Shown: positions 4,518-63,540 of the stretch, one piece after another
Position numbering within the stretch: position 1 is the first letter of the stretch
How the letters are laid out: each line of letters starts with the position of its first letter
Source of the DNA: an uncultured Candidatus Saccharibacteria bacterium
GTDB taxonomy: Bacteria; Patescibacteriota; Minisyncoccia; Phycocordibacterales; UBA9973
DNA length: 64,000 bases
Reading direction: 5' to 3'
NCBI GenBank assembly: GCA_964484005.1
Contig: CAZADR010000002.1
Span: forward strand, 10,318-74,317
Position numbers and translations under genes: made by a program
Notes under the pieces: generated by a model
The model's database searches: none
Told to the model about the DNA's origin: nothing
The model's input: only the letters and a program-made list of their open reading frames with translations

Positions 4518-7370
4518 TTGTTGTATAATTTACAGCATATGATAACTACATTAAAAAGCAGGTTTTTATTATTAATATTTGTTTTTTCTTTTGTAACTTT
4601 TTTAGGAATTTCCGACAAGGCCAACGCTATGGTTGATTCTAGTGGAAATATTTTTTGTGCTAGAGAAAGTTATTGGGAATTAAACAAGACGGGTGCTGTT
4701 ACTGGAACTGGAGATGAGGGGAGTGGTTATACTACTTTAGTGCCACTACATTCTTCTTCGGATACTAGCTATGATACTATTAGCCCTTTTACGGCTGGCG
4801 CCACTCTCACATATCATCGTCGCTGGGTTGGGACTGAGCCAATATCACCAAGTACTTGGAATAGTTCTTGGACTACAGAAACCTGTACCACGGGTCCACT
4901 AGATGGAAATAAATGCTCTGTGAGTGTCAGTGGTGGTTTTTACCTTAATCCCGCATACAGCGGTGGAGGTCAGGCATATGATATTTATGGTGAGCCTGCA
5001 TGTATAGAAGATGGATATGCTGGTGTTGCTTATAGTTCACCAAATAGGATAAGTGCAGGATATACTGTAAATGCAACTGTTTCCGGGGTTGGGGGATCAC
5101 CTACACCTCTTTCTCAGTCAGTAGCTGCTAACGGCACCACAAAATTTACCTTAACTCCAAGTTCTTCTTATATTGTAAATAAAGATGATGTTACTAAAAA
5201 TTCTACTGGTTGTAATTTAGGAAACGAGGCAACCGCATGGTCTGGAAACGAGTACACTACTGGTACGATTAATGCTAATTGTACTTACACTTTTTCTTTT
5301 ACAGCTATTCCTGCTGTTACTGCTTCTTGTTCCGTCTCAAGTCCGGTGGCATCTGGGGTAAATCCAAGCATTACTTTTACCACAAATTCAAGTTCAAACA
5401 ATTGTTATGTTCGTAACGACAATATTGCCTTTGGTTTTTCTCCTCAACCTGGAACAGGAGTTTCTTCTTCCGGAACAGTCTATCAGCCTGGAGTTCAGAC
5501 AGCGGGCTCTCACCAAGGCTCAATATATTGTCAAAATTCAGCCAATACAGCAAATAGTGGCTGGCAATATTGTCCGTATACAGTGAGTGCACCAGCTATT
5601 CCCGCTACTCCCACAGGTCTTACCGCTACAGCAAGCTCCTGTGGAACTGGAACGATAAATGTATCTTGGAGTGCATCTGCTGGTGCAACAAGTTACACCC
5701 TTAAAGATGGAGCTACTGTTATTTATTCTGGAGCTTCTACTTCTTATTCTCATATTGGTCTAGTTGCAGGTTCTAGTCATAGTTACACTGTTTCTGCTTC
5801 AAACGCTGCGGGTTCATCAGCATATTCAGCTGCTGTTTCAAGAACTGCTCCAGCAGCTTGTGCTCCAACCGACGCTTGTGGTAATGGTAGTAGCTCTTTT
5901 CCTAGATTAACTGAACCGACAACTAATCCAACTGCTTGTAATCCAGGAGTGTATGCAAACTCTCCAGCTGATACCACCACCTTGGGCGCTCAAGCTTGGA
6001 ATTGGTCTTGTGGCACGGTCACTTCCTGTTCTGCTCCCAAATATGGCTGTAGAGTAACGACTGACTCAAATTATAGTCTTCCTCAATATGGACCAACTGG
6101 ACCAAACAACAATTATGGTTGCGCTGGTACTTGTGCAAACGGGGGAACAGATTATTCTACCTGTACACCTCCAGTTGGTATGTCTGGAACCTTGACCACT
6201 CCTAGCTGTACGATTGCTTCCGGGTCCAGCACTTGTACCACGACTGTCTCTTGGACAGTAACTAATCCTGTAGTAGTCGGCGGCTCTTCAGTCACTTCTT
6301 CATATCCTAGTGCTGGTACAGTCGTCGCTCCTCCAGTCAGTACTGGAACTGCAGATTCAGGTACAAAAACAGGTGTAACTATTCCATATAGTTCCAGGAC
6401 TTTCTATCTTTACAACAACAATGTTCAATTAAATACAGGCACAGCTAACGCTACCTGCGCTACAGGTTCAGCCTGGAACGGAACCATCTGTTATACAGCA
6501 CCCGCTCTTCCTGATTTGACAGCCGCTTCTACTACTCCTTCTACTGCTGTAAAAAATGAAGCCAAAACTTTTTCTTCAATCGTTACAAACATTGGAGCTG
6601 CAGATACTGGTGCATCTTTCTCAAACTTCTTTCAAGTGTGTAATGTAGGAGGAGGATGTGCAACTCCAACAGATCTAGCTCCTACTACCATGACAGCTTT
6701 GGCTGGTGGAGCGACCGGTACGGCCACCAAAGATTACACCTTTACCTCTGTCGGAACATTTTCTGTTCGAGCTTGTGCAGACAAGACAAACTCTGCTTCT
6801 CTTGGTGTAATTAACGAAGGGACCATGGAAGGCAACAACTGTGGAAATTGGGCTAATGTTACTGTTTCCGATACCCCAACTCCACCTTCCAATGAAGCCC
6901 CCGTCATCACCATCTGGGCTACTCCAACTTCTGGTACCGTGAATATTGTCAAACCTACTATTCTCTGGAGTGTCGACAATGATCCGACATCTTGTGCGGC
7001 AAGTGAAGACTGGTTAGGTAGTCGAAATTACAGTGGAGCTCAAACTCAAGAACCAGCCTTAAATCAAATTAAAACTTACCGTTACACATTAATCTGCTCC
7101 AATGCTTATGGTAGTGATGAAGCTACTGCTACGGTCGCAGTGTCTGGAACTGCCTCTGGAGTAAGTATTAGTGTAAATCCTACCTCCATCTATGCTGGAG
7201 ATTCAGCCACTCTCACTTGGTCAGGCGCAGGAGCTTGTACTTATAACTTTGATACTGGTTCTAATATTGTAACTCCAAATACGACCACTACTTACACTCT
7301 TACTTGTGATGGTGTATCTTCTAGTGCTACATTGATAGTGAAGAAGAAACCGATATTTATTGAGGATTAG
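4518..7370 (+). CDS. Large secreted Cys/Thr/Ser/Gly-rich surface protein (likely start 4539, MITTLKSRFLLL signal peptide)
   Basis: Signal peptide, low-complexity T/S/G/C-rich composition, and an extended -10 TGTTGTATAAT upstream. The C-terminal ~460 aa are identical to the product of 35386..38112. Confidence 0.7.
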   Translation: MLYNLQHMITTLKSRFLLLIFVFSFVTFLGISDKANAMVDSSGNIFCARESYWELNKTGAVTGTGDEGSGYTTLVPLHSSSDTSYDTISPFTAGATLTYHRRWVGTEPISPSTWNSSWTTETCTTGPLDGNKCSVSVSGGFYLNPAYSGGGQAYDIYGEPACIEDGYAGVAYSSPNRISAGYTVNATVSGVGGSPTPLSQSVAANGTTKFTLTPSSSYIVNKDDVTKNSTGCNLGNEATAWSGNEYTTGTINANCTYTFSFTAIPAVTASCSVSSPVASGVNPSITFTTNSSSNNCYVRNDNIAFGFSPQPGTGVSSSGTVYQPGVQTAGSHQGSIYCQNSANTANSGWQYCPYTVSAPAIPATPTGLTATASSCGTGTINVSWSASAGATSYTLKDGATVIYSGASTSYSHIGLVAGSSHSYTVSASNAAGSSAYSAAVSRTAPAACAPTDACGNGSSSFPRLTEPTTNPTACNPGVYANSPADTTTLGAQAWNWSCGTVTSCSAPKYGCRVTTDSNYSLPQYGPTGPNNNYGCAGTCANGGTDYSTCTPPVGMSGTLTTPSCTIASGSSTCTTTVSWTVTNPVVVGGSSVTSSYPSAGTVVAPPVSTGTADSGTKTGVTIPYSSRTFYLYNNNVQLNTGTANATCATGSAWNGTICYTAPALPDLTAASTTPSTAVKNEAKTFSSIVTNIGAADTGASFSNFFQVCNVGGGCATPTDLAPTTMTALAGGATGTATKDYTFTSVGTFSVRACADKTNSASLGVINEGTMEGNNCGNWANVTVSDTPTPPSNEAPVITIWATPTSGTVNIVKPTILWSVDNDPTSCAASEDWLGSRNYSGAQTQEPALNQIKTYRYTLICSNAYGSDEATATVAVSGTASGVSISVNPTSIYAGDSATLTWSGAGACTYNFDTGSNIVTPNTTTTYTLTCDGVSSSATLIVKKKPIFIED

Positions 7371-7378
7371 AAGGTTTG
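5988..7378. repeat. 1.39-kb segment identical to 36730..38120 (offset 30742)
   Basis: Protein sequences are identical from GAQAWNWSCGTV to the C-terminal IFIED. The shadow ORFs 6734..6979 and 37476..37721 are identical, and DNA identity ends right after the stop codons (gattagaag). Confidence 0.85.
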
Positions 7379-7457
7379 TTTTGAATTTAATAAATTAAAA
7401 AACCTATTTTATAACCCTAAGATAGGTTTTTTTATAGTTTATTGTTAAACTTTAAGT

Positions 7458-8030
7458 ATGATACTAGAGACCAAAAGGTTGATATTAAGAAAGCCCCAAA
7501 AGAGTGACTGGAAAGACTTAGTGGAGGGAGTGGGGGAGTATGATGTCGCCAAGATGCTTTTGATGGTGCCTCATCCTTACGGGAAAAAAGATGCAGATAC
7601 TTATATAAAAACTGTAATAAAAAGATGGGCACAAAAGGTTCAAAATGACTATACTTTTTTTATTGAGTTGAAATCCGAGAAAAAAGTTATTGGAGCTATT
7701 GGAATCCACAGAATAAACATTTTTTCTGGAACTGGAACGACGGGCTCCTGGATTAATAAAAAATATTGGAGAAATGGTTATATGACCGAGGTCAAAATTG
7801 TGTTAAATGATTTTGCCTTTAATAAATTAAAATTAAGAAGATTGAATTCAGAAGTTTTTGCTGGAAATAAAGCCTCAAACGCCACTCAGTCAAAAATGGG
7901 GTATAAGCTCGAGGGAACAATGAGAAAAGCCGCGAGGTGCAAAGCATCAGGCGAAATTCATGATGAAAATACCTATGGTTTATTAAAAGAAGATTGGAAG
8001 AGGGCCAGAGCTAAGATTGTTAAAAAATAG
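7458..8030 (+). CDS. GNAT family N-acetyltransferase (RimJ/RimL-like)
   Basis: N-terminus MILETKRLILRKPQKSDWKDL and overall GNAT-like pattern; 190 aa. Confidence 0.65.
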   Translation: MILETKRLILRKPQKSDWKDLVEGVGEYDVAKMLLMVPHPYGKKDADTYIKTVIKRWAQKVQNDYTFFIELKSEKKVIGAIGIHRINIFSGTGTTGSWINKKYWRNGYMTEVKIVLNDFAFNKLKLRRLNSEVFAGNKASNATQSKMGYKLEGTMRKAARCKASGEIHDENTYGLLKEDWKRARAKIVKK

Positions 8031-9906: not shown

Positions 9907-10383
9907 ATGATCATTTTTCTTAATGGCTCAATAAATGCAGGGAAAAGTACAGTTGCTAAAATATTAGCAACAAAACTTTTGAATACTGCTTTGGTAGAAA
10001 TTGATTCTTTAAGGGAAATGATTGACTGGATACCCATAGACCAGGCTGTGCCGATAAACCTGGAAAATGCTATTTCGGTAATAAAGAATTTTATAAAAAG
10101 AAATTTAAATGTAATTGTCCCATATCCTTTATCTCAAGATAATTATGATTATGTTGCAGGAGAACTAAAAGACATTAATACTAAAGTTTTCTTTTTTACC
10201 CTTGCTCCAAAACTCGAAGCGATACTAGGAAATAGGGGAGAAAGAGAGTTGGGCAAAAATGAGAGTGAAAGAATTAAGCATCATTATGATGTTGGTATCC
10301 ACAACCCATCTTTTGGGGAAATTATTGATAATACTAATCAAACCCCAGAAGAAACAGCGAAAGAAATATTAAAAAATCTATGA
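9907..10383 (+). CDS. P-loop kinase (chloramphenicol-phosphotransferase-like / AAA family)
   Basis: Walker A NGSINAGKSTVAKIL. The start is chosen at the in-frame ATG at 9907 (MIIFLNGS) rather than the track start at 9826, which overlaps the upstream gene. Confidence 0.55.
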   Translation: MIIFLNGSINAGKSTVAKILATKLLNTALVEIDSLREMIDWIPIDQAVPINLENAISVIKNFIKRNLNVIVPYPLSQDNYDYVAGELKDINTKVFFFTLAPKLEAILGNRGERELGKNESERIKHHYDVGIHNPSFGEIIDNTNQTPEETAKEILKNL

Positions 10384-11417
10384 AAAATACGATAGAAGCG
10401 AGTAGAAACATATTAATATTAACAGACGATAGAAACCAATTTTATAGCTCTTCAAAAGAATATGGAGGTAGCATGAATACATCTATAATTTTGAAAGAAC
10501 TTGAAAATTTTGGATATAAAGTGACAATTAAGGGTTTTTCAGAAATTTTCTCTAATGATGATAGTTATAAAAATTATTTTGTATTATATCAATCTACCGA
10601 GGACCCAGATCTTAGATATAAAGACTACGTAGAAGATGTAATCTTAGGTCTAAAAATTTCTGGAGCATACTTAATACCATCTTTTGAATATTTTAGAGCA
10701 CATCACAACAAAGTGTTTATGGAAATTTATAGGTTGCGAGCAAATTATGATAAATCTATCATGTCGTGGCATTTTGGAACATTTGAAGAATTAACTAAAA
10801 CTAAATGTAATTTTACATATCCTGTTGTTATTAAACCATCAGCGGGATCAAAAAGTAAAGATATTTCGCTTGCTCAGAATAAAAAGGAGTTGTTGGCTGC
10901 AGCCTTTAAAATTTCCAGAAGTTTTACCCTTGTAAATACACTAAGAGCAGTTAAAGCCTTTTTACATTTTAAAAACTATAACCCTATCTCAAATAATAGA
11001 AAAAAATTTATTGTTCAGGAATTTGTAAGTGGTTTGTCTGGTGATTACAAGGTATTAATATATGGAGATAAATACTATGTCGTAAGGAGAGAGAATCGGC
11101 CAGGTGATTTCAGGGCAAGTGGTAGTGGACTTTTTACCTTTTTAGATGTGGCATTGGATGACTTATTGAATTATGCTGAATCTGTTTTTACAAAATCAGA
11201 TACTCCTTTTTTGGGTATAGACATTGGTATTCGTGATGGTCGTTTTTTTCTTCTAGAATTTCAGTTTATGGTTATGGGAAGCGGTGCACTAGAAAGGTCG
11301 AGTGCTTATTTCAGAAAAATTGATAATAAGTGGCAAGTTATACGTGAAAAGTCTATACTAGAGAAGGTGTTTGCAGAGAGCGTGTATCTTTATATTAATA
11401 ATTTAAATAAAAAATAA
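10380..11417 (+). CDS. ATP-grasp domain protein
   Basis: YPVVIKPSAGSKSKDI and QEFVSGLSGDYKVLIYGDKYYVVRRE are typical ATP-grasp motifs. Confidence 0.6.
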   Translation: MKNTIEASRNILILTDDRNQFYSSSKEYGGSMNTSIILKELENFGYKVTIKGFSEIFSNDDSYKNYFVLYQSTEDPDLRYKDYVEDVILGLKISGAYLIPSFEYFRAHHNKVFMEIYRLRANYDKSIMSWHFGTFEELTKTKCNFTYPVVIKPSAGSKSKDISLAQNKKELLAAAFKISRSFTLVNTLRAVKAFLHFKNYNPISNNRKKFIVQEFVSGLSGDYKVLIYGDKYYVVRRENRPGDFRASGSGLFTFLDVALDDLLNYAESVFTKSDTPFLGIDIGIRDGRFFLLEFQFMVMGSGALERSSAYFRKIDNKWQVIREKSILEKVFAESVYLYINNLNKK

Positions 11418-12077
11418 ATGCCACCACTTGAAGATATATTTATAATAAGACATGGAGAATCTGACGAGGATGTTAATCCTGAAATGAAGGGGATGATTCA
11501 TAATTCCGAAATGGCTCTAACCCCAAAAGGTATTGAGCAAGCCCATGAAGTGGCTGAAAAATTAAAGGGTGAAATTGTGAATTTTGATGAAGTTACCTTT
11601 TATGTTTCTCCATACAAAAGAGCACAACAGACAGCTAAAATAATTTTAGATACATTAAAAAATGATAAGATAAAAATGATAACTGAGCCTTCAATAAGAA
11701 GCTTAAATTGGGGCGATACAACAACGGAAAATTTAAAGGAAAGAGAACAAGAGAGGTATAAAGTTGGTGTTTTGCATTATAATTTTCCAAATGGAGATAG
11801 GTCACCAGAATATGTTGAAAATATTTATGATTTTGTTTATAGAATAATTAAAGAAAAGCACATAGATAATGATAAAAAAGAGTGTGTTGTTATTGTTGGG
11901 CATGGATTTTCATTAAGAATAATTGTAAAAGCTTTTACTGAAATGAGTGATGATGATTTTAAGTGGATAAAAAATCCACCCAATACACATGTGGCTAGGA
12001 TATACTTTGATCCACAAAAAAATAATTTCTACATGAGAGAGCCTTTACCAGTTCGTGACCCAAGTCAGGTTGAATAA
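11418..12077 (+). CDS. Histidine phosphatase superfamily (phosphoglycerate-mutase-like) protein
   Basis: IFIIRHGESDED (RHGE signature), SPYKRAQQTA and VGHGFSL motifs. Confidence 0.75.
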   Translation: MPPLEDIFIIRHGESDEDVNPEMKGMIHNSEMALTPKGIEQAHEVAEKLKGEIVNFDEVTFYVSPYKRAQQTAKIILDTLKNDKIKMITEPSIRSLNWGDTTTENLKEREQERYKVGVLHYNFPNGDRSPEYVENIYDFVYRIIKEKHIDNDKKECVVIVGHGFSLRIIVKAFTEMSDDDFKWIKNPPNTHVARIYFDPQKNNFYMREPLPVRDPSQVE

Positions 12078-12084
12078 TAGATTT

Positions 12085-12636
12085 ATGATCAAATACTTAA
12101 AGATTATAAAAAATTTTAATATTTTTCCAAATAGTAAAATTAAAAAACCTAAAAAATATATTGAAAGACAGACGGTTAGAGCAATAGCTCTTAATAAAAA
12201 AGGAGAGATAGCTTTAGTTACAAATCCTATTCATAACTTATATTCATTTCCGGGTGGTGGAGCAGAGAGCGACAACCTAGAAAATGAAATTATAAGAGAA
12301 TGCGCTGAAGAGATAAGTCAAGAAGTAGTTGTTGTTAAGAAAATTGGAAAAATTAAGGAATACCGAGATAGAGAGTCAAAAAAATACATCACAACTTGTT
12401 TTGAGGTGAAAGCAATTAAAAAAATTAAAAAAGATTTTAGAACAGAAAGCGAGATTAAAAATGGACTTAATGTTGTTTGGTTTAATGTTGATGAAGCAAA
12501 AAAAATATTTGAAAAACAAGTAAAAAAAATTGAAGAAGGAAAAATTAATTTTTATAATACAGCTTTTAATATTGTAAGAGATCTAGAGTTTTTGAATGAG
12601 TATTTAAATATTAATGAAAATAATACACAAAAATAA
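12085..12636 (+). CDS. NUDIX hydrolase
   Basis: Nudix box GGGAESDNLENEIIRECAEEISQE. The start is set at the ATG at 12085, just after the upstream stop. Confidence 0.7.
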   Translation: MIKYLKIIKNFNIFPNSKIKKPKKYIERQTVRAIALNKKGEIALVTNPIHNLYSFPGGGAESDNLENEIIRECAEEISQEVVVVKKIGKIKEYRDRESKKYITTCFEVKAIKKIKKDFRTESEIKNGLNVVWFNVDEAKKIFEKQVKKIEEGKINFYNTAFNIVRDLEFLNEYLNINENNTQK

Positions 12637-12646
12637 GGTAAAACTC

Positions 12647-13063
12647 ATGAAAAAATTCTACTCGGTTATTGTTAATAGTCTCATTGTAAATAATGAAGGT
12701 AAAGTATTGATTGCACAAAGAAGCCCTGAAGAAGGGCACGAGGGAGGAAGATGGAGTATTCCTGGTGGAAAAGTAGAGTCAAACGGTCAAGAGCATGATG
12801 TTTTATTAAAAAATATTAAAAAAGAGATTTTAGAAGAAGTGGGAGTTGAAATATTTGATGACATTTCCCTAGTCCACGATAATACATTTACCAGAAGCAA
12901 TGGGGATGATGTTTTGGCTTTAGTTTTTAAATGTAAATATAAATCCGGAGAAGCGAAATCATTAGAAGATACGACAGATGTAAAATGGATAGGAAAAGAG
13001 GAAATTGATAGCTATCAATTTCCTCCTAATGTGAGAGAGTATGTATTAAAGGGGTTTAGTTAA
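12647..13063 (+). CDS. NUDIX hydrolase
   Basis: Nudix box GGKVESNGQEHDVLLKNIKKEILEEVGV. An alternative start is 12614. Confidence 0.7.
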   Translation: MKKFYSVIVNSLIVNNEGKVLIAQRSPEEGHEGGRWSIPGGKVESNGQEHDVLLKNIKKEILEEVGVEIFDDISLVHDNTFTRSNGDDVLALVFKCKYKSGEAKSLEDTTDVKWIGKEEIDSYQFPPNVREYVLKGFS

Positions 13064-52135: not shown

Positions 52136-52227
52136 GAAACATTAGATACATTGTCTCGTTTTGGGGCTCAAATTCTCCGTACTGACCTACTTGGCACTGT
52201 AATTATGAAGTGTGATAGAATGGAAAC

Positions 52228-53472
52228 ATGCGTGATAAAAAAATAGAAAAACTAATAAAAGGGGAGGAGCAGAGGCAAAGAGAAGGATTGGAACTTATTC
52301 CATCTGAGAATTATGTTTCAGAAGATGTGCTGAAGGCCAATGGTTCTGTATTTACAAATAAGTATTCAGAAGGGTACCCTGGGCGCAGATATTACGGCGG
52401 GCAGGATTTTACAGACCAAGTAGAGAGATTAGCCATCGAGCGTGTTTGTAAATTATTTAAATGTAAATATGCAAATGTTCAACCGCACTCTGGGGCGCCC
52501 GCAAATTTGGCTGTTTATGCTGCTTTACTTGAACCAGGGGATACTGTACTCGGCATGGATTTATCTCATGGTGGGCACCTCACTCACGGACATCCGATGA
52601 CTCTTCCGGCCAAGATTTATAAATTTGTCACCTACAAGATGAAAGATCCTGAAACGGGAGAAATTGATTATGAAGACATGCGCAAAGTTGCACTTCAGTA
52701 TAAACCAAAATTAATTATTGCAGGATTTTCTGCTTACTCACGCACCTTGAATTACAAAAAATTTGTTGAGATTGCCAGAGAAGTCAGTGCTGTCACCATG
52801 GCAGATATGGCACATATTGCAGGCCTCATCGCAGCTGGTGCTCTTCGTAATCCCTTTGATGATGGTTTTGATATTATTACTTCCACCACCCACAAGACTC
52901 TTCGTGGACCACGCGGAGGAATAATTTTGACTCGCGAAAGTGAAGAAATCGCTAAAAAAATTGATAAGTCTATTTTCCCGGGCATCCAAGGTGGACCACA
53001 TATGCATACGATAGCTGGGAAGGCTGTAGCTTTTGGTGAAGCAATGACTCCAAAATTTAAAAAATATGCCAAGCAAATTTTGAAAAATGCGAAGGCAATG
53101 GAAAAAGTATTTCACAAAAATAACATTCGTATGATTGGCGGTGGTACAGACAATCACCTTATTTTGGCAGATGTTTTCGGCTCTCTCGGAGTCACAGGCA
53201 AAGAAGCACAGAGCGTGCTCGACGAAGTCGGTATTACTTTAAATATGAACTCCATCGCTGGGGACACCAGAAAGCCTTTAGACCCTTCAGGTATTCGTTT
53301 TGGTACTCCAGCTATCACTACCCGTGGATTTAAGGAAAAAGAATGTGCTTATGTGGCAGAGCTCATGTTGAAAGTTTTGAGAAACAAAGACGATAAAAAA
53401 ATAAAAGAAGTAGTGCACAAAGAAATTAAAAAATTAGCTAAGAAATTTCCAATACCAAAGAAATTTGTATAA
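52228..53472 (+). CDS. glyA: Serine hydroxymethyltransferase
   Basis: HGGHLTHG and TTHKTLRGPRGG (PLP lysine region); 414 aa. Confidence 0.9.
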   Translation: MRDKKIEKLIKGEEQRQREGLELIPSENYVSEDVLKANGSVFTNKYSEGYPGRRYYGGQDFTDQVERLAIERVCKLFKCKYANVQPHSGAPANLAVYAALLEPGDTVLGMDLSHGGHLTHGHPMTLPAKIYKFVTYKMKDPETGEIDYEDMRKVALQYKPKLIIAGFSAYSRTLNYKKFVEIAREVSAVTMADMAHIAGLIAAGALRNPFDDGFDIITSTTHKTLRGPRGGIILTRESEEIAKKIDKSIFPGIQGGPHMHTIAGKAVAFGEAMTPKFKKYAKQILKNAKAMEKVFHKNNIRMIGGGTDNHLILADVFGSLGVTGKEAQSVLDEVGITLNMNSIAGDTRKPLDPSGIRFGTPAITTRGFKEKECAYVAELMLKVLRNKDDKKIKEVVHKEIKKLAKKFPIPKKFV

Positions 53473-53484
53473 AAATTAAAAATC

Positions 53485-54165
53485 ATGAATTTAAAAAATA
53501 AAGTTGTGGTTATTACTGGATCTACGGGCGGACTCGGAAAAGCTCTAGCTTCAGAGTTTATCAGTGAACAGGCCAAAGTTATTATAAACGGACATTCTGT
53601 GAAACAACTTCATAAAGTAAGTGAAGAGATAGGAGCATTGTCCTGTGTCGGTGATGTGACAAAAGAAACTGACATGCAAAAGCTTGCGAATTTTGCTGTA
53701 AAGAAATTTGGGAAAATAGATATTTGGATAAATAATGCGGGCGCCAATATGCCTCATTCGACTATTGAAAAAATTGATTCTAGGTTGGCCCATAGGGTTA
53801 TGGAAGTTAATTTTTTTGGAACTTTCTTTGGTTCTCGCTCAGTGATTAAACATATGAAGAAACAGAAATATGGAACTATTGTAAATGTAGTTTCTGTAAG
53901 GTCTCTCGTTCCGAGTCCTATTTCAATAGTTTATTCTTCAAGTAAATGGGCGGTACGAGGACTTACAGAAGTGTTGCGTATGATTCTTAAACCTGACCAT
54001 ATTTCTGTAATAGCTGTGCATCCGGCTGGTATGAAAACAAATTTATTCGGCAAAATTAAGCCAGAAGGATATAAAAATTATATGGAGCCTTCTTTTGCTG
54101 CTAAAAAAATAGTTCAGAATTTAAAACTTTCAAAACCCAAAGAAGAGTTAATTGTAAAAAAATAA
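53485..54165 (+). CDS. Short-chain dehydrogenase/reductase (SDR)
   Basis: TGSTGGLGKA Rossmann motif and YSSSK catalytic YxxxK. Confidence 0.75.
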   Translation: MNLKNKVVVITGSTGGLGKALASEFISEQAKVIINGHSVKQLHKVSEEIGALSCVGDVTKETDMQKLANFAVKKFGKIDIWINNAGANMPHSTIEKIDSRLAHRVMEVNFFGTFFGSRSVIKHMKKQKYGTIVNVVSVRSLVPSPISIVYSSSKWAVRGLTEVLRMILKPDHISVIAVHPAGMKTNLFGKIKPEGYKNYMEPSFAAKKIVQNLKLSKPKEELIVKK

Positions 54166-54170
54166 ATAAT

Positions 54171-54866
54171 ATGGCAAAAAAAGGAAAGCTCATAGTAATA
54201 GACGGCACAGACGGGAGTGGAAAGGCGACTCAGGTTGCTCTTTTGGCAAAAAAATTAACGCATGAAGGAAAAAAAGTAAAAATAGTCGATTTTCCTGAAT
54301 ACTACAAGAATTTCTTTGGAGAATTTATCGGGCATTGTTTGAGTGAGCAGTATTATAATTTTATAAAAGTGCATCCCAAGATTGCTTCTGTCCTGTACGC
54401 GGCAGATCGTTTTGAGTCTAGTGCTGAGATCAAAAATTGGTTGAAAGATGGTTATATTGTTATTGCCAATCGTTATGTTTCAGCCAACCAGATTCACCAA
54501 GGGGGAAAAATTAAAAATGCGAAAAAAAGAAATGATTTTATAAAATGGCTAAATAAGATGGAATATGAAGTTTTTGGTATTTCCAAACCAGATATTACTC
54601 TATATTTAAGCTTACCGATAAACATTGTGTTGCAACTGTTAAAAAAACGAGATAGTAGTAAAATGAGAAGAGCTTACTTAAAAAAGAAAAAAGATGTGCA
54701 TGAGGCAGATGTTGATTTCTTGATCAATTCTAGGAAGAGCGCACTTTGGCTGGTAAAAGAAGTTCCAAATTTTATTAAAATAGATTGCGCACCAAAGGGA
54801 GAGATCTTGTCTCGTGAAGAGATTCATAAAATGGTTTTTGAAAAAACAAAGAAGATTATTAAATAA
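54171..54866 (+). CDS. tmk: Thymidylate kinase-like
   Basis: IVIDGTDGSGKATQ P-loop and DRF motif (AADRFES). Confidence 0.7.
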   Translation: MAKKGKLIVIDGTDGSGKATQVALLAKKLTHEGKKVKIVDFPEYYKNFFGEFIGHCLSEQYYNFIKVHPKIASVLYAADRFESSAEIKNWLKDGYIVIANRYVSANQIHQGGKIKNAKKRNDFIKWLNKMEYEVFGISKPDITLYLSLPINIVLQLLKKRDSSKMRRAYLKKKKDVHEADVDFLINSRKSALWLVKEVPNFIKIDCAPKGEILSREEIHKMVFEKTKKIIK

Positions 54867-54877
54867 TTTTTAAAAAT

Positions 54878-55210
54878 ATGGAATTAAATGAATACCAAGA
54901 GAAAGCATTAACTACGGCTCTTTATCCAGAAAAATATAAAGTTATTTATGCGGCCATGGGTCTAGGCAACGAGGCAGGAGAAGTGATGGGGAAAATAAAA
55001 AAGTGGCTGAGGGGTGATGACGGGGAAGGAGCGATGAGCGAAGAGCGCAAGGAGGCGTTAAAAGGAGAGCTTGGAGATGTGCTGTGGTATTTGGCAATTT
55101 TAGCTCATGACTTAGATCTTTCTCTTGAGGATGTTGCCAAGGAGAACATAAATAAATTACAATCTAGAAAAGAAAGAGGAACTCTAAAAGGAGATGGGGA
55201 TGTAAGATAA
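54878..55210 (+). CDS. MazG-like nucleotide pyrophosphohydrolase domain protein
   Basis: LGNEAGEVMGK...ELGDVLWYLAILA is the EExxE-type MazG pattern. Confidence 0.6.
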   Translation: MELNEYQEKALTTALYPEKYKVIYAAMGLGNEAGEVMGKIKKWLRGDDGEGAMSEERKEALKGELGDVLWYLAILAHDLDLSLEDVAKENINKLQSRKERGTLKGDGDVR

Positions 55211-55214
55211 ATTC

Positions 55215-56942
55215 ATGGAACAAGAAATAAAAAAATTAATAAATGACGCATTAAAGAATCTAAGCATAGAAGTCAGCACTATTTCTCTGGAGCATCCAGA
55301 GGATTTAAAGAATGGTGATTACTCTACAAACATTGCTTTAGCTATCGCCAAAAGTATCGAAAGAAATCCAATAGAGCTAGCCGAAAAAATAATAGAGCAA
55401 ATCTTAAGATTGAATGTGGATAAAAATATTGAGAGGGTAGAGTTGGCGGGCCCAGGATTTATAAACTTTTATCTTTCTCGACAATTTTTTAGTAAAAGCA
55501 TAGAAGAAATTTTAAGTCAGGCAAACAACGTCGGCAAGAATGACACATACGCTGATAAAAAGATAATGGTTGAATATACGGATCCAAATCCCTTTAAGCC
55601 TTTTCATATTGGGCACCTGATGACCAATGCTATCGGTGAGTCCATCGCTAGGATATTAGAACATTCTGGGGCGGTGGTCTCTCGAGCAAATTATCAAGGA
55701 GATGTGGGGCTACATGTGGCCAAAGCTATCTGGGGTCTTTTAAATAATGAGAAATTACAAAGTAAATCTGGTTCGCACAATCTACAGGCGACAAATATAG
55801 GGCTAGCATATTCTCATGGCGCAGGTATGTATGAGGTAGATGAAAATATAAAAAAAGAAATAGATGAAATAAATAAAAAAGTATATGCTAGAAATGATGA
55901 CAAAAAAGACAACAAGATAAATGAAATATATGAGTGGGGGTTCAAGGTGACCATGGAAGCTTTTGAAGATTTGTATAAAATGCTTGGTACAAAGTTTGAT
56001 TATTATTTCTTGGAGAGTGTTATGGCAGAGGCTGGGAGGGAAATAGTGGAAGCCAACATAGAAAAGGTATTTGAAAAGTCTGATGGCGCAGTGGTTTTTA
56101 AGGCTGAAAAATATGATCCAAAGCTTCATACGAGAGTTTTTATTACTTCACAAGGACTACCTACCTATGAGACCAAAGAGCTCGGCCTAGCCGAGGAGAA
56201 GTTTAAGACAGAACCAAACATGGATTTGTCTATTACTATTACAGCCAATGAGCAAGCAGACTACATGAGAGTGGTAGCTAAAGCTCTTTCTTTGATTCAT
56301 CCAGAATATGAAAATAAAATGAGGCACATTACTCACGGCATGATGCGTTTTGCTGAAGGTAAGATGAGCTCCAGAAAAGGAAATGTTATTACTGGTGAGT
56401 CATTGTTAAACGATGTTCGGGATTCTATTTTAGAAAAGATGACTGACCGAGATTTCTCAAATGTTGAGAGAGAAAAGATAGCCTCTGATGTAGGAGTAGC
56501 AGCGATAAAATATTCTATTTTAAAACAATCTATCGGTGGAGATATAATGTTTGATTTTGAAAAATCGATTTCTTTTGATGGTGATTCTGGTCCCTACCTT
56601 CAATATTCTTATGCTCGAGCAAATTCCATTTTAGATAAATCTCAAAAAGAAAACATTTTGCCAGATTTTGAGATTTTACCCGAAGAAACTTTTGAAGTAG
56701 AAAAATTACTGTATAAGTTCGGAGAGGTTGTAGAGAGGGCGTCTTCAAAATACGAGATACATCACATTGCAAATTATTTGATAGAAGTAGCCCGTGCCTA
56801 CAATAGCTTTTACGGAAATATGGTGATTGTAAACAAAGAAGATAAAACTTCAGCCTATAAAGTAGCCCTAACTTATGCTTTTTCTTTTGTGATGAAAACG
56901 GGCTTACACCTTTTGGGTATTGAGGCTCCAGCAAAGATGTAG
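55215..56942 (+). CDS. argS: Arginine--tRNA ligase
   Basis: N-terminal Arg_tRNA_synt_N, HIGH-type PFHIGHLMTNAIG, C-terminal DALR anticodon domain ending in Met. Confidence 0.85.
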   Translation: MEQEIKKLINDALKNLSIEVSTISLEHPEDLKNGDYSTNIALAIAKSIERNPIELAEKIIEQILRLNVDKNIERVELAGPGFINFYLSRQFFSKSIEEILSQANNVGKNDTYADKKIMVEYTDPNPFKPFHIGHLMTNAIGESIARILEHSGAVVSRANYQGDVGLHVAKAIWGLLNNEKLQSKSGSHNLQATNIGLAYSHGAGMYEVDENIKKEIDEINKKVYARNDDKKDNKINEIYEWGFKVTMEAFEDLYKMLGTKFDYYFLESVMAEAGREIVEANIEKVFEKSDGAVVFKAEKYDPKLHTRVFITSQGLPTYETKELGLAEEKFKTEPNMDLSITITANEQADYMRVVAKALSLIHPEYENKMRHITHGMMRFAEGKMSSRKGNVITGESLLNDVRDSILEKMTDRDFSNVEREKIASDVGVAAIKYSILKQSIGGDIMFDFEKSISFDGDSGPYLQYSYARANSILDKSQKENILPDFEILPEETFEVEKLLYKFGEVVERASSKYEIHHIANYLIEVARAYNSFYGNMVIVNKEDKTSAYKVALTYAFSFVMKTGLHLLGIEAPAKM

Positions 56943-56989
56943 AAAGTTTTACACCTTGCCCTGTTTACTTTTATTTAATAGCTGTCTAC

Positions 56990-57266
56990 TATTGTAAGTA
57001 GAAGAGTGTTCCCAACCCTAACCTGCAAGGAAAGGAAGGACTAAACAATGATGCAGATGAGGTACAGCCCACTTTCTCGTCGTATCAGGTTGTTTTGGTT
57101 GAGGAGGAACAAAGTTCACCTGATGTTGCGTCAAAATTCTGTATCCATCTGCGTCAGACGAGCTGCGGTTTATTTCATGCCTCAGCGCGGCTAGATATCT
57201 CCACAGGTTTGCAGGCACACCTCAAAGTGCCTGCTTTTTATTCCAACAGTATGTTATATTTTATAT
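56990..57266 (+). promoter_or_regulatory. GC-rich structured leader with intrinsic terminator (57211-57242) immediately upstream of ileS - candidate attenuator/riboswitch
   Basis: About 270 nt with GC well above background and multiple local palindromes; terminator GCAGGCAC-ACCTCAAA-GTGCCTGC + TTTTTATT ends 25 nt before the ileS ATG. Confidence 0.4.
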
Positions 57267-60200
57267 ATGGAAGAAAAGGATAATAACAAATCAGAAGCAG
57301 CTCTCCGAGAAGAGCGTATTTTAGACTTTTGGCGCGAAAATAAAACTTTTGAGAAGACCTTAACGAAAGAGGCACCTGGTGGGCATTATGTTTTTTATGA
57401 TGGTCCGCCTTTTGCTACAGGACAAATTCACTATGGGCATATTTTAGGTAGTACGGTAAAAGATGTAATAGGAAGATATAAAACCATGCAAGGTTTTTAT
57501 GTACCTCGAAAATGGGGTTGGGATTGTCATGGCTTACCAATTGAAAATATTGTTGAAAAAGAATTAGGTATTGCTGGGCATGTAGAGATTGAAAAATACG
57601 GTATTGATAAATTTGTGGAATATGCACGCAGTAAGGTTCTGCAATATGACAAGGACTGGGAGAAGGGAATTGAGCGTATCGGACGCTGGGTGGATTTTCG
57701 TGGCCAGTATAAAACGATGGACAACACTTTTATCGAGTCTGTTTGGTGGGCATTGTCGGAGTTAAACAAAAAGAAACTTATCTATGAGGGGGTGAGAGTT
57801 CTCGCTTATTGTGCTCGTTGTGAGACACCGATTGCTAATTCTGAAATCGCGATGGACAACAGTTACAAAGATATTTCTGATATTTCTGTTTATGTAAAAT
57901 TTGAGTTAGAAGGAGAACCTGGTACTTATTTGCTTGCTTGGACGACGACCCCTTGGACATTACCAGGCAATACAGCCATCGCCATCAATCAAGATATTGT
58001 TTATATAAAAGTAAAAGTAGCAGAAGATGTTTTAATTCTTGCCAAAGAAACGGTGCAAAATGTTTTGAAAGATAAAGAGTATTTGGTGTTGGGCGAAATA
58101 AAAGGAGCAGACTTAATTGGCAAAACATATAAACCGGTTTTCCCATATTATAAAAATTCTGAATCTGCCAAGAATGAAAATATTTGGAAAGTTTGGCACG
58201 CAGACTTTGTCACCCTAGAAAAGGGAACAGGTATTGCTCACGAAGCTCCTGCTTTTGGTGAAGATGATATGAACTTGGCAAAACAAAATAATATTCCTTG
58301 GATAATCCATGTAGACGAAACAGGAAAATTTAAGTCTGAGATTGTGGATTTTGCTGGCATGCAGGTAAAACCAAAAGGTATTGAAAAAGATGACCACCAG
58401 AAAGCAGACATAGAAGTTATAAAATATCTGGCAAAAAATAATTTACTTTTTGCTAAAGAAAAGATAATTCACTCATATCCACACTGTATGCGCTGTGATA
58501 CGCCGATTATATATTATGCATTACCTTCTTATTTTATAAATATTCAGGAAGTAAAAAAAGATATAATCAAAAAATCACATAGTATAAATTGGATACCTTC
58601 ACACTTAAAAGAGGGACGGTTTAAAAATATAGTAGAGAATGCACCGGATTGGAACATATCTAGGAATCGTTATTGGGCGAGCCCTCTTCCAATTTGGAAA
58701 TGTGAAAATTGTAAAGAAAAAACTTTTGTTAATTCTTTAGAAGATTTAAAGTCAAAAGTAAAAAATTCTGGCAATCAGTATTTTGTTGCTCGTCATGGAC
58801 AAGCTGACAGTAATGCGGGAATGTATATTGATTCAAAATCAAAACAATCAAACAAATTAACCGAAAAAGGGAAAGAAGAGGTAAGAGAAAGTGTGCAAAA
58901 AATAAAAGGTACAAATTTTGATTATGTTTTCTGTTCACCAATGCTTCGCACCAAAGAAACTGCAAAAATAATAGCTGAAAATTTAAAGATGGATATAGGT
59001 CAAATTGTTTTTGATGAACGCCTGGTTGAATTTCAGGTGGGAGACTTAGATGGAAAAAGTATAGAAGAATACTTTAAATATATCGAAACTATTCCAGATT
59101 ATTTTTCAACTCCACTCCCTGGAGGGGAGAGTAGGCTTGCTGTACACAAGCGTATGGGAGATTTTATTTATGAGTTGGAAAAGAAATATTCTGATAAAAA
59201 AATATTAATAATCTCTCACGGAGATCCGATATTAGCACTCTTTTTGTTGAGCGAAGGGTATACAAAAGAAAAAATAAAAGAACAGGAAAAAAACTTCCCA
59301 TATTTTAAAACAGGAGAAATAAGAGAGCTTTCTTTTGTGCCTCTTCCACACAATAAAGACTATGAGTTGGATTTACATCGTCCATATATTGATGACATAC
59401 CACTTGTGTGCGAGTGTGGCAGTCACTTGGTGCGTATACCTGAAGTATTAGATTGCTGGTTTGAATCTGGCTCCATGCCTTTTGCTCAAGATCATTTTCC
59501 TTTTGAAAATAAGGAGTGGCAAAAGAATAATTTTCCTGCAGGTTTTGTGGCTGAATATATCGCTCAGACTAGAACTTGGTTTTATTATACCCATGTTGTA
59601 TCTACAATTCTTTTCGATTACACCCCATTCAAAAATATAGTAACCACTGGTACCTTGAGAGCGGAAGATGGAGAAAAAATGTCTAAATCCAAACAGAATT
59701 ATCCTGATCCTTGGAAATTTATAGATAAATATGGGGCAGACGCCTTGCGCCTTTACTTGATGTCTTCTACTTTAATGAAAGGGGAAGATTCAAATTTTTC
59801 AGAGAAAGCTGTGCAGGATATCGCTAGTAAGATTATTGGGCGTTTGTTTAATGTGTTTGCCTTTTATGAATTATACAGAGATAAAGAAATAGAGACAGAT
59901 GAAGTGCCAAAAAGTGAAAATATTCTCGACAAATGGATTTTATTGCGTTTTTATAAAACTCTTGAAGAAACTTCTAAAGGTATGGAGTTATACGATATGG
60001 TAGAAGCTACCCGTCCAATCGATGCATTGGTCAACGATCTTTCCACTTGGTATCTTCGCCGTTCTCGTGAACGAATCAAAGATGGAGACGCAGAGGCAAA
60101 ACAAACTTTGTATTTTATTTTAAAAACCTTAGCAAAAATGCTTGCTCCATTTGCACCATTTTCCGCGGAAGATATATGGCTAAAATTAAAAAATGAAAAT

Positions 60201-60773
60201 GATGAAGAAAGTGTGCACCTGACTAGTTGGCCAGAAGTTCATAAATCTTTCTTGGACACTATTTTGGGAAGGACAGTCCTTCACGGAGATAAAGAAATAA
60301 TAGAAAATATGGAAAAAGTTCGAAATATTGTAACTTTGGGCCTCGAATCAAGACAAAAAGCTGGGATAAAAGTTCGCCAGCCACTCGCCAAGTTGGAAGT
60401 AAAAAATCTTGAGCTTGGAGATGAGCTTGTGGAGCTCATAAAAGATGAAATAAATGTAAAAGAAATTCTTGAAAATAAAAACATTGAAGGAGAAGTTTTG
60501 CTTGATGTAAAAATTGATGATGAATTAAAGATAGAGGGGGATTATCGAGAGCTCGCTAGGGCATTGCAGGATATGAGAAAGAAAATCGGCCTTACTCCGA
60601 GTGATGTTATTTCAATTACTTTTGAAACAAGTGAAATAGGTAAGAATTTAATTCAAAAATTTGAAGTTGATATGAAAAAAACCGTACTAGCTTCCAAAAT
60701 AGAATTTGCAGGCAATGATGGCGAAGAAATAAAAATAGACAGTTTTATCTTCAAGGTAAAAATTCTAAAATAA
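57267..60773 (+). CDS. ileS: Isoleucine--tRNA ligase with inserted histidine-phosphatase-like domain
   Basis: HYGHIL (HIGH), KMSKS, editing and anticodon domains. About 200 extra aa between the CENC and CECG zinc-knuckle halves carry VARHGQADSN, CSPMLRTKETA and ISHGDPI (histidine phosphatase branch-1 signatures). Total 1168 aa. Confidence 0.85.
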   Translation: MEEKDNNKSEAALREERILDFWRENKTFEKTLTKEAPGGHYVFYDGPPFATGQIHYGHILGSTVKDVIGRYKTMQGFYVPRKWGWDCHGLPIENIVEKELGIAGHVEIEKYGIDKFVEYARSKVLQYDKDWEKGIERIGRWVDFRGQYKTMDNTFIESVWWALSELNKKKLIYEGVRVLAYCARCETPIANSEIAMDNSYKDISDISVYVKFELEGEPGTYLLAWTTTPWTLPGNTAIAINQDIVYIKVKVAEDVLILAKETVQNVLKDKEYLVLGEIKGADLIGKTYKPVFPYYKNSESAKNENIWKVWHADFVTLEKGTGIAHEAPAFGEDDMNLAKQNNIPWIIHVDETGKFKSEIVDFAGMQVKPKGIEKDDHQKADIEVIKYLAKNNLLFAKEKIIHSYPHCMRCDTPIIYYALPSYFINIQEVKKDIIKKSHSINWIPSHLKEGRFKNIVENAPDWNISRNRYWASPLPIWKCENCKEKTFVNSLEDLKSKVKNSGNQYFVARHGQADSNAGMYIDSKSKQSNKLTEKGKEEVRESVQKIKGTNFDYVFCSPMLRTKETAKIIAENLKMDIGQIVFDERLVEFQVGDLDGKSIEEYFKYIETIPDYFSTPLPGGESRLAVHKRMGDFIYELEKKYSDKKILIISHGDPILALFLLSEGYTKEKIKEQEKNFPYFKTGEIRELSFVPLPHNKDYELDLHRPYIDDIPLVCECGSHLVRIPEVLDCWFESGSMPFAQDHFPFENKEWQKNNFPAGFVAEYIAQTRTWFYYTHVVSTILFDYTPFKNIVTTGTLRAEDGEKMSKSKQNYPDPWKFIDKYGADALRLYLMSSTLMKGEDSNFSEKAVQDIASKIIGRLFNVFAFYELYRDKEIETDEVPKSENILDKWILLRFYKTLEETSKGMELYDMVEATRPIDALVNDLSTWYLRRSRERIKDGDAEAKQTLYFILKTLAKMLAPFAPFSAEDIWLKLKNENDEESVHLTSWPEVHKSFLDTILGRTVLHGDKEIIENMEKVRNIVTLGLESRQKAGIKVRQPLAKLEVKNLELGDELVELIKDEINVKEILENKNIEGEVLLDVKIDDELKIEGDYRELARALQDMRKKIGLTPSDVISITFETSEIGKNLIQKFEVDMKKTVLASKIEFAGNDGEEIKIDSFIFKVKILK

Positions 60774-62958: not shown

Positions 62959-63540
62959 ATGCATCACATTTACCACACAGAGGGGATAATATTGGGGAGT
63001 AAGAATTACGGTGAAACTGGAAAATATTATTCTATTTTTACTCGTGACTTGGGTATGGTTTACGCTTCGGCACAAGGTGTGCGCAAAATGTCTTCCAAAC
63101 TTCGTTTTGTTTTACAAGATTTTTCTTATATAAAAGTGGATCTTGTTCAAGGCAAAGATTTTTGGCGTATCACTAGCGCTTCCAAGACAAACTCTCTAGA
63201 ACAACTTTCTAAAAATTCAGGAACTTTTAAAGTTTTATCAAATGTAGCAAATTTGTTAAAAAGACTTTTGGCAGGGATAGAGCCCAACGAAGCTCTGTTT
63301 AGTGATTTATTAAACGGATTATTTATTTTAGAAAAAACAAAAGAAGGAGAAGACTTAGCAAACATAGAGGCGATTATTGTTTTGCGCATATTAAACAATT
63401 TGGGATATATCGGAGGTGACGAAAATATGCAAAACTTGGTCAAGTCTCCATTTGAAGATAATCTAATTTTTGAAGTTTCTAAATCAAGAAGAGAGGTTTT
63501 ACACCAAATAAATAAAGCCCTCAAGGAGACTCATTTGTAG
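62959..63540 (+). CDS. recO: DNA repair protein RecO (short form)
   Basis: HTEGIILGSKNYGETGKYYSIFTRDLGMVYASAQGVRK matches the RecO N-terminal OB-fold pattern; 193 aa. Confidence 0.55.
   Translation: MHHIYHTEGIILGSKNYGETGKYYSIFTRDLGMVYASAQGVRKMSSKLRFVLQDFSYIKVDLVQGKDFWRITSASKTNSLEQLSKNSGTFKVLSNVANLLKRLLAGIEPNEALFSDLLNGLFILEKTKEGEDLANIEAIIVLRILNNLGYIGGDENMQNLVKSPFEDNLIFEVSKSRREVLHQINKALKETHL

Follow-up and report, generated by a model that had tools for sequence, protein, structure and literature searches.

Aminoacyl-tRNA synthetases are among the most conserved enzymes, and they rarely gain new catalytic modules within their catalytic domain; a historically important module, the CP1 editing domain, sits inside that domain. 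Histidine phosphatases form a superfamily in which the histidine of an RHG motif attacks a phosphomonoester to give a phosphohistidine, two arginines and a second histidine bind the phosphate, and a glutamate protonates the leaving group. In type 2 isoleucyl-tRNA synthetases (IleRS2), represented by the structures from Priestia megaterium (8C8V and 8C8U) and T. thermophilus (1ILE), a Rossmann fold and a CP core with a zinc site are followed by the CP1 editing domain, CP2, the CP3 zinc knuckle, the anticodon-binding domain and the type 2 C-terminal domains. CP3 is a variable, peripheral element, with a zinc motif in the T. thermophilus IleRS and none in the C. albicans and S. aureus enzymes (PMC7191050). 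Here we describe the ileS gene in a 64,000-nucleotide (nt) stretch, referred to as the window, of contig CAZADR010000002.1 (positions 10,318 to 74,317, forward strand), deposited as part of an uncultured Candidatus Saccharibacteria genome. Outside the insert, its product has the same domain order as IleRS2; at the tip of the CP3 hairpin, in place of about 2 residues, it carries an enzyme domain of about 197 residues with the fold of a histidine phosphatase.

A histidine phosphatase domain nested in a type 2 IleRS

The ileS product scored above the cut-off of the NCBIfam model TIGR00392 (834.3 bits; cut-off, 621.4), and a Pfam search placed tRNA-synt_1 in two halves that flank His_Phos_1, followed by Anticodon_1 (E = 1.3e-29) and DUF5915 (E = 3.8e-13). 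The HYGH (amino acids [aa] 55 to 58), KMSKS (aa 804 to 808) and TTTPW (aa 226 to 230) motifs are invariant in 106 homologues, as are the individual residues H55, G57, H58, K804, K807, S808, T226 to W230 and D334. The C-terminal part is organized as in type 2 enzymes and has no type 1 C-terminal zinc-binding domain. The best-matching structures are those of IleRS2 (phmmer E = 2e-211; Foldseek E = 3e-72, with template-modelling scores of 0.60 to 0.67) and of eukaryote-like IleRS, whereas type 1 enzymes matched far more weakly (1e-82 versus 1e-211). The models of MupA and MupB (NF000257 and NF000258) gave 699 and 729 bits against a cut-off of 1900, scores that point only to general type 2 similarity. 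Judged by its sequence, the protein is an IleRS of this organism, of the bacterial type 2 and with its synthetic and editing motifs intact.

In an alignment with the P. megaterium IleRS2 (8c8v), residues 8 to 496 of the window protein correspond to chain residues 7 to 476, and residues 694 to 1084 correspond to chain residues 479 to 864. About 197 aa thus stand cleanly where the P. megaterium chain has about 2 residues at the tip of the hairpin. This hairpin belongs to the CP3 subdomain, and the insert is flanked there by C479/C482 on one side and C715/C717 on the other. The original prediction had placed a histidine phosphatase-like segment at 58750-59400, between the two halves of the zinc knuckle of a 1168-aa IleS, and these coordinates were accurate. 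All five of the motifs that it quoted were found: WKCENC (Table 1), VARHGQADSN from residue 507 (58785-58814), SPMLRTKETA from residue 557 (58935-58964), ISHGDPI from residue 649 (59211-59231) and LVCECGSH from residue 713 (59403-59426). Likewise, the PF00300 match anticipated at around residues 500 to 700 was located at residues 506 to 669 (E = 5.9e-28; 98.3 bits with a cut-off of 21.7). We regard the presence of a histidine phosphatase architecture inside this IleRS as practically certain. The four zinc-ligand positions (residues 479, 482, 715 and 717; 58701-58712 and 59409-59417) are all cysteine in 89 of 120 homologues; in the other 31, the four ligands are lost jointly (pattern S-gap-D-x) and the phosphatase insert is kept, and hence the zinc knuckle is dispensable in this context. 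In the return arm of CP3, residues D702, H704, P706 and D709 are invariant. The guanine-plus-cytosine (G+C) fraction is 0.33 for the insert and 0.36 for its flanks.

The catalytic histidine, the arginine and the second histidine named in the original prediction are indeed the catalytic residues, and they are invariant in the homologues, as is E588; N516 has a frequency of 0.99 among the 120 homologues. Across about 300 instances of the domain, tandem copies included, the R-H pair is kept wherever it is covered, the second arginine and the second histidine are always kept, and the proton-donor position is occupied by glutamate or aspartate in nearly all. The mean identity of the 120 homologues to the reference is 0.43 for the insert and 0.73 to 0.84 for the synthetase core. 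The catalytic residues are thus invariant in spite of the faster evolution of the insert, which argues for selection on catalysis. As to whether the insert folds on its own, structure prediction of the isolated domain gave a predicted local distance difference test score (pLDDT) of 94.5 and a predicted template-modelling score (pTM) of 0.91, and the domain had pLDDT values of 88 to 96 within the full-length model; these scores indicate independent folding. The fold is the alpha/beta phosphoglycerate mutase-like fold of PF00300. Its best structural neighbour is the phosphoserine phosphatase iPSP1 (4IJ5), and the best matches as a group are capped small-molecule phosphatases, with SixA (16.0) and PGAM5 (14.6) scoring lower. 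The insert is a true histidine phosphatase domain of branch 1, PhoE/PspA-like and with a cap, and from its sequence we infer that it is very probably catalytically active.

Table 1. Coordinates of ileS, its domains and motifs, and its conserved neighbours in the window
Feature	Position (nt)	Strand	Remarks
argS, conserved upstream neighbour	55215..56942	+	Pfam Arg_tRNA_synt_N, tRNA-synt_1d, DALR_1
ileS, type 2 isoleucyl-tRNA synthetase with nested phosphatase domain	57267..60773	+	uninterrupted open reading frame, 1168 aa
CP1 editing domain, ~aa 200-400	57864..58466	+	aligns with 8c8v editing region; weak tRNA-synt_1_2 match; splits tRNA-synt_1 match
CP3 zinc knuckle, first half, WKCENC from aa 477 (C479, C482)	58695..58712	+	
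Inserted His_Phos_1 domain, aa 497-693	58755..59345	+	Pfam match aa 506-669 = nt 58782-59273
R509-H510-G511, RHG motif with nucleophilic His	58791..58799	+	frequency 1.00 in 120 homologues
R561, second Arg of phosphate pocket	58947..58949	+	invariant
E588, predicted general acid/proton donor	59028..59030	+	invariant in 120 homologues
H651, second catalytic His	59217..59219	+	invariant
CP3 return arm (PHN..YELDLHRPYID) and second zinc-knuckle half (C715, C717)	59346..59432	+	aligns from 8c8v residue 479
KMSKS catalytic loop	59676..59690	+	K804, K807, S808 invariant
Anticodon-binding domain (aa 888-1040) and DUF5915 type 2 C-terminal domain (aa 1044-1166)	59928..60764	+	
recO, conserved downstream neighbour	62959..63540	+	RecO_N at equivalent position in contig L001

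Distribution of the nested form and its split counterpart

The identical protein is encoded on eight contigs, and four of these loci come from four samples (ERZ27247837, ERZ27247817, ERR3094302 and ERR3094292). A comparison with IleS from related genomes, proposed earlier as a measure of how widespread the insertion is, showed that PF00300 is carried by all 120 of the best full-length homologues (60 to 100% identity; 1144 to 1330 aa), which come from metagenome-assembled genomes labelled Nomurabacteria, Paceibacterota, Parcubacteria and Pacebacteria. A genome scan with one genome per species, for which an alignment of six sequences served as the query and a match to the full insert and its junctions was required, gave 141 confirmed candidates, 80 of which are listed. 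In each of these 80 species-level loci, the phosphatase separates the N-terminal part of ileS from the C-terminal part, and none has a copy adjacent to the gene. The loci are labelled Nomura-, Zambryski-, Taylor-, Adler-, Kaiser- and Wolfebacteria, Paceibacterota and Minisyncoccia, with a few carrying unverified labels such as Spirochaetia or Saccharibacteria. When the insert was searched against 1.84 billion cluster representatives, 10,656 matches with E values of up to 0.001 were obtained; the 150 best included 86 proteins of 300 aa or longer, and 83 of these contain an IleRS core, with about 35 to 59% identity to the window protein. The presence of the insert in proteins with cores down to about 35 to 40% identity indicates an old architecture that spans deep divergence. 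The phosphatase-bearing IleRS is therefore the standard IleRS of this lineage, fixed in at least 80 species genomes. The earlier statement that a phosphatase inserted in IleS is not a standard architecture is correct with respect to model organisms and the searchable literature but does not apply within this lineage. In databases such proteins are named "class I tRNA ligase family protein" or "isoleucine--tRNA ligase," and no more specific annotation is given, so the phosphatase domain escapes notice.

Among free-standing proteins, those most closely related to the insert have about 190 aa (e.g., P0044, P0265 and P0069); they share 36 to 42% identity with it over the whole domain and span it entirely, from the N-x-Y-F-x-x-RHG start to the last GE(I/L)R strand. 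All eight of the closest free-standing phosphatase genes for which the genomic context was looked up are located directly upstream of an insertion-less ileS gene (931 to 984 aa), and where the available sequence suffices, the order is argS-phosphatase-ileS-recO, with gaps of 0 to 30 nt or 4-nt overlaps. In a tblastn search with the window IleRS, residues 503 to 689 matched the upstream gene, and residues 15 to ~497 and 702 to ~1150 matched the downstream ileS. In most of the 80 related genome loci, and likewise in the split-type loci, argS precedes ileS, and recO follows ileS in most related loci. The window has this same argS-ileS-recO synteny, with the phosphatase moved inside ileS. A tblastn search with the ileS-adjacent free-standing proteins detected no phosphatase remnant in the argS-ileS spacer of the window; the same proteins matched the insert far better than they matched the gene at 11418-12077. 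We conclude that the insert is derived from, or interchangeable with, an ileS operon partner found in other Patescibacteria. As for the gene at 11418-12077, which had been described as a standalone paralogue, it does encode a His_Phos_1 protein (E = 2.3e-29), but this protein is only 28% identical to the insert and is not a close paralogue; on these grounds it was also rejected as the source of the insert, the ileS-adjacent genes being the real free-standing counterparts.

The median isoelectric point (pI) of the inserted domains is 5.9 (n = 28), and that of the ileS-adjacent free-standing proteins is 9.4 (range, 5.2 to 10.7; n = 19). This gap possibly reflects an electrostatic docking surface that was lost after fusion, or else a general proteome trend. 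A quick neighbour-joining tree of the IleRS cores, computed without bootstrap and with a backbone that is nearly a polytomy, clusters the three states (10 parsimony changes over 148 tips) and contains pure inserted clades of 31, 18 and 17 members. Two split-type enzymes pair with inserted-type enzymes in this tree, so that the split form and the nested form may have been converted into each other more than once. The neighbour-joining tree of the phosphatase domain is star-like, and short fragments contaminate its "free-standing" class.

Some relatives of the window protein carry further domains. Eight of them (P0143, P0153, P0175, P0182, P0185, P0199, P0230 and P0234; 1286 to 1330 aa) contain an additional HD hydrolase domain (PF01966), in one case together with PF13023, which is positioned near the C terminus, past the equivalent of residue 1144 of the window protein. 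A second insertion site is the loop after WFESGSMP, equivalent to residues ~740 to 760 of the window protein, a segment with low pLDDT in the model; in P0345 (1395 aa), this loop holds a P-loop kinase-like domain (AAA_18/AAA_33), and in P0291 (1066 aa), which also has the His_Phos domain, it holds a GNAT acetyltransferase. P0291 additionally has, in CP1, a segment resembling a REP/IS200-type tyrosine transposase that might be a gene-calling chimera. As assembled, six proteins (P0251, P0260, P0331, P0344, P0366 and P0380) have two tandem His_Phos_1 domains, or four in the case of P0251, each with the catalytic residues. Searches of PDB sequences with the P-loop and HD segments of the relatives returned nonsignificant matches, among them the polynucleotide kinase Pnkp1 (E of ~0.08) for the P-loop domain.

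With regard to the surroundings of ileS, the argS-ileS spacer (56943-57266; 324 nt) lies where split-type relatives have the phosphatase gene. Its predicted folding is somewhat better than that of shuffled sequences (z = -2.5), and at its end, about 30 nt ahead of the start of ileS, there is a hairpin resembling a terminator (57211-57234) together with a T-run. An Rfam search of the spacer gave no significant family, the best hit being a chance snoRNA match (E = 0.5), and its sequence is conserved only in the identical contigs and not in the other loci. The spacer may be an uncharacterized ileS leader or attenuator. Upstream of argS, at about 52180-55210 of the window as deduced from positions 4962-7944 of the identical contig L001, there are genes for a serine hydroxymethyltransferase, a short-chain dehydrogenase, a deoxynucleoside kinase/thymidylate kinase-like protein and MazG, and on a longer contig more aminoacyl-tRNA synthetase genes (one class II and HisRS-like, another of class I) follow within 12 kb downstream of ileS. 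At 10380-13063, four genes on the same strand encode an ATP-grasp-like protein (weak match), the His_Phos_1 protein of 11418-12077 and two NUDIX hydrolases, the genes for the latter overlapping each other and the phosphatase gene. This looks like a small operon for phosphate or nucleotide handling that is unrelated to the ileS insert.

Possible functions of the nested domain

We propose that the substrate of the complete histidine phosphatase domain, which is inserted at the tip of the CP3 zinc-knuckle hairpin of a type 2 IleRS, is a small phosphorylated compound, and that the provision or clearance of this compound would matter where IleRS works. H510 would attack the phosphomonoester to form a phosphohistidine intermediate, with R509, R561 and H651 holding the phosphate and E588 serving as the general acid, and nesting gives one phosphatase per synthetase, produced and located together with it. 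Our leading guess for the substrate is a phosphorylated metabolite or else a product or by-product of the nucleotide type; a regulatory or moonlighting phosphatase acting on a nucleotide or phospho-intermediate, as put forward in the original prediction, is likewise conceivable. Since related IleRS enzymes work without the domain, it is no part of the aminoacylation chemistry. Functional or physical interaction is classically predicted for proteins that occur both as a split pair and as a nested one. That the domain is an active small-molecule phosphomonoesterase functionally tied to IleRS is the reading that we favour as reasonably probable; whether a small substrate and a real coupling to IleRS both apply is, in our judgement, evenly balanced.

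A number of observations weigh against this proposal. In a metagenome scan seeded with a split-type IleRS, 80 insertion-less relatives (51 to 85% identity) were found, 70 of them with enough upstream sequence. Eight of the 70 have a phosphatase gene upstream and one, at locus L116 (6380-7000), has a weaker His_Phos_1 homologue (94 bits with the insert profile) immediately downstream, but 61 have none within 3.5 kb of ileS, as confirmed by a profile search of all open reading frames. This indicates that the association is lineage specific and that IleRS does not need the phosphatase for aminoacylation; the idea of a universal phosphatase partner of ileS was rejected for this reason. The conserved adjacency could stem from operon history and not from shared function, and CP3 has been described only as a peripheral, variable subdomain (PMC7191050). 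The argument for a small substrate is one of fold similarity alone, and the curated NCBIfam models of phosphatase subfamilies all scored the insert far below their cut-offs: dPGM_arch (NF038349) reached 81.8 bits of 225, the alpha-ribazole phosphatase CobC model (TIGR03162) reached 73.9 of 162.9, and the PspA-type phosphoserine phosphatase model (NF045917) reached 58.1 of 350, while TIGR01258 was absent among the listed matches and the insert neither attained the cut-off of the SixA model TIGR00249 nor had the minimal, cap-less fold. Assignment to a characterized subfamily (dPGM, CobC, PspA, SixA, GpmB or RNase H/acid phosphatase) was rejected, as every model remained below its cut-off.

The main rival explanation is that a housekeeping metabolic phosphatase (PhoE-, PspA- or GpmB-like) was captured from beside ileS into a permissive loop and kept for an unrelated activity of its own, with no coupling to aminoacylation beyond coexpression. 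Apart from the many insertion-less relatives that have no adjacent phosphatase and the resemblance of the fold to generic metabolite phosphatases, this would fit with the differences in CP3 topology and zinc site between IleRSs (PMC7191050), the 31 homologues that have lost all zinc ligands, and the tolerance of relatives for unrelated inserts (GNAT, P-loop and HD domains or two to four phosphatase copies) at several sites. However, the free-standing gene is found directly upstream of ileS in eight of eight cases, across sequences that have diverged and usually with close packing of the two genes; at least 80 species have the nested form as a fixed trait; the transfer of an upstream gene into an internal loop is no simple read-through fusion; and the split and nested states never occur together in the loci examined. 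We consider a mere passenger somewhat unlikely. A macromolecular substrate appears very unlikely to us. The domain might act on the 3' end of tRNA that is yet to be charged and free it of a phosphate, pyrophosphate or cyclic phosphate, as a repair or antitoxin activity, or its target might be a phosphoprotein (IleRS itself among the candidates), as for SixA, Sts and PGAM5. In favour of such a role, the enzyme binds tRNA and carries the domain among the insertions of its catalytic domain, an HD hydrolase domain or a P-loop kinase-like domain (the latter with Pnkp1 among its weak PDB matches) is also present in some relatives, and the free-standing relatives are mostly basic. The toxSAS toxins pyrophosphorylate the CCA end of tRNA, and hydrolases undo this modification. 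On the other hand, capped small-molecule phosphatases are better structural matches than SixA and PGAM5, the inserted domains are acidic, the accessory P-loop and GNAT domains reside in a different loop and their PDB matches are nonsignificant, and we know of no His_Phos_1 member that acts on RNA ends. Least credible of all, and essentially excluded, is an inactive scaffold that replaces the zinc knuckle, or an artefact. In its favour, homologues with the domain can do without the zinc ligands, and the insert evolves faster than the core; against it, the catalytic residues are all invariant, the identical sequence occurs in independent assemblies, and hundreds of divergent homologues share the junctions. 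An assembly or frameshift artefact, which would have undone the original prediction, is excluded by the single open reading frame, the identical protein on eight contigs and the homologues that carry the insertion, and an intein or mobile element was rejected as well, given that Pfam shows no intein or transposase signature in the window IleRS and that the G+C content of the insert is near that of its flanks.

A more far-reaching possibility, which we regard as quite unlikely, is that the nested phosphatase is a second "proofreading-like" module that works in cis on something passing through IleRS. Candidates would be a tRNA 3' end blocked by a phosphate or pyrophosphate, with repair or antitoxin action as the role, a phosphorylated inhibitor or adenylate mimic directed against IleRS, or the nucleotide product. 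If true, this would constitute a new class of hydrolytic activity embedded in an aminoacyl-tRNA synthetase, topologically like the CP1 editing domain, that evolved in Patescibacteria from a trans-acting partner encoded beside ileS. Coming back to the favoured small-molecule phosphatase tied to IleRS, any action of the domain on an IleRS ligand or on tRNA would represent a new accessory activity in translation; if there is no such action, the protein would show clearly how, in nature, a neighbouring gene of the operon can be captured as an inserted domain, and it would mark CP3 as a permissive site for IleRS engineering. In either case, a second, apparently active hydrolase has become fixed in the housekeeping IleRS of a very large, uncultivated and genome-reduced bacterial group, and the split/nested pair offers an experimental system in which the trans and cis forms can be compared.

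Comparison with known systems

Taken together, the feature described here is real, widespread and built from two known kinds of protein, and our searches of the accessible literature turned up no paper that describes a phosphatase domain in an IleRS. A 2026 preprint in which 96,219 IleRS sequences were annotated by domain makes no mention of a phosphatase, and the domain was found in none of the solved IleRS structures retrieved. A precedent for an IleRS with an embedded accessory enzyme domain is the family NF040702 (ileS_w_GNAT); the window protein has no GNAT domain, scored 306 bits against a cut-off of 1999 and had no acetyltransferase family in its Pfam result.

On the phosphatase side, PhoE (1H2E), iPSP1 (4IJ5), glucosyl-3-phosphoglycerate phosphatase (6S2Q) and CobC (6E4B) are free-standing proteins with only 21% identity to the insert, which is nested. 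The split-type phosphatases such as P0044, P0265 and P0069 are also separate polypeptides; they are mostly basic, and N516 is often replaced by Q and E588 by D. Fusions of His_Phos_1 with other enzymes are known from PFK-2/FBPase-2 (1BIF) and from the mycobacterial RNase H/acid phosphatase (NF005567), in which the two enzymes are joined end to end. Unlike in these fusions, the phosphatase domain of the window protein is nested within the catalytic domain of its partner, and that partner is an aminoacyl-tRNA synthetase.

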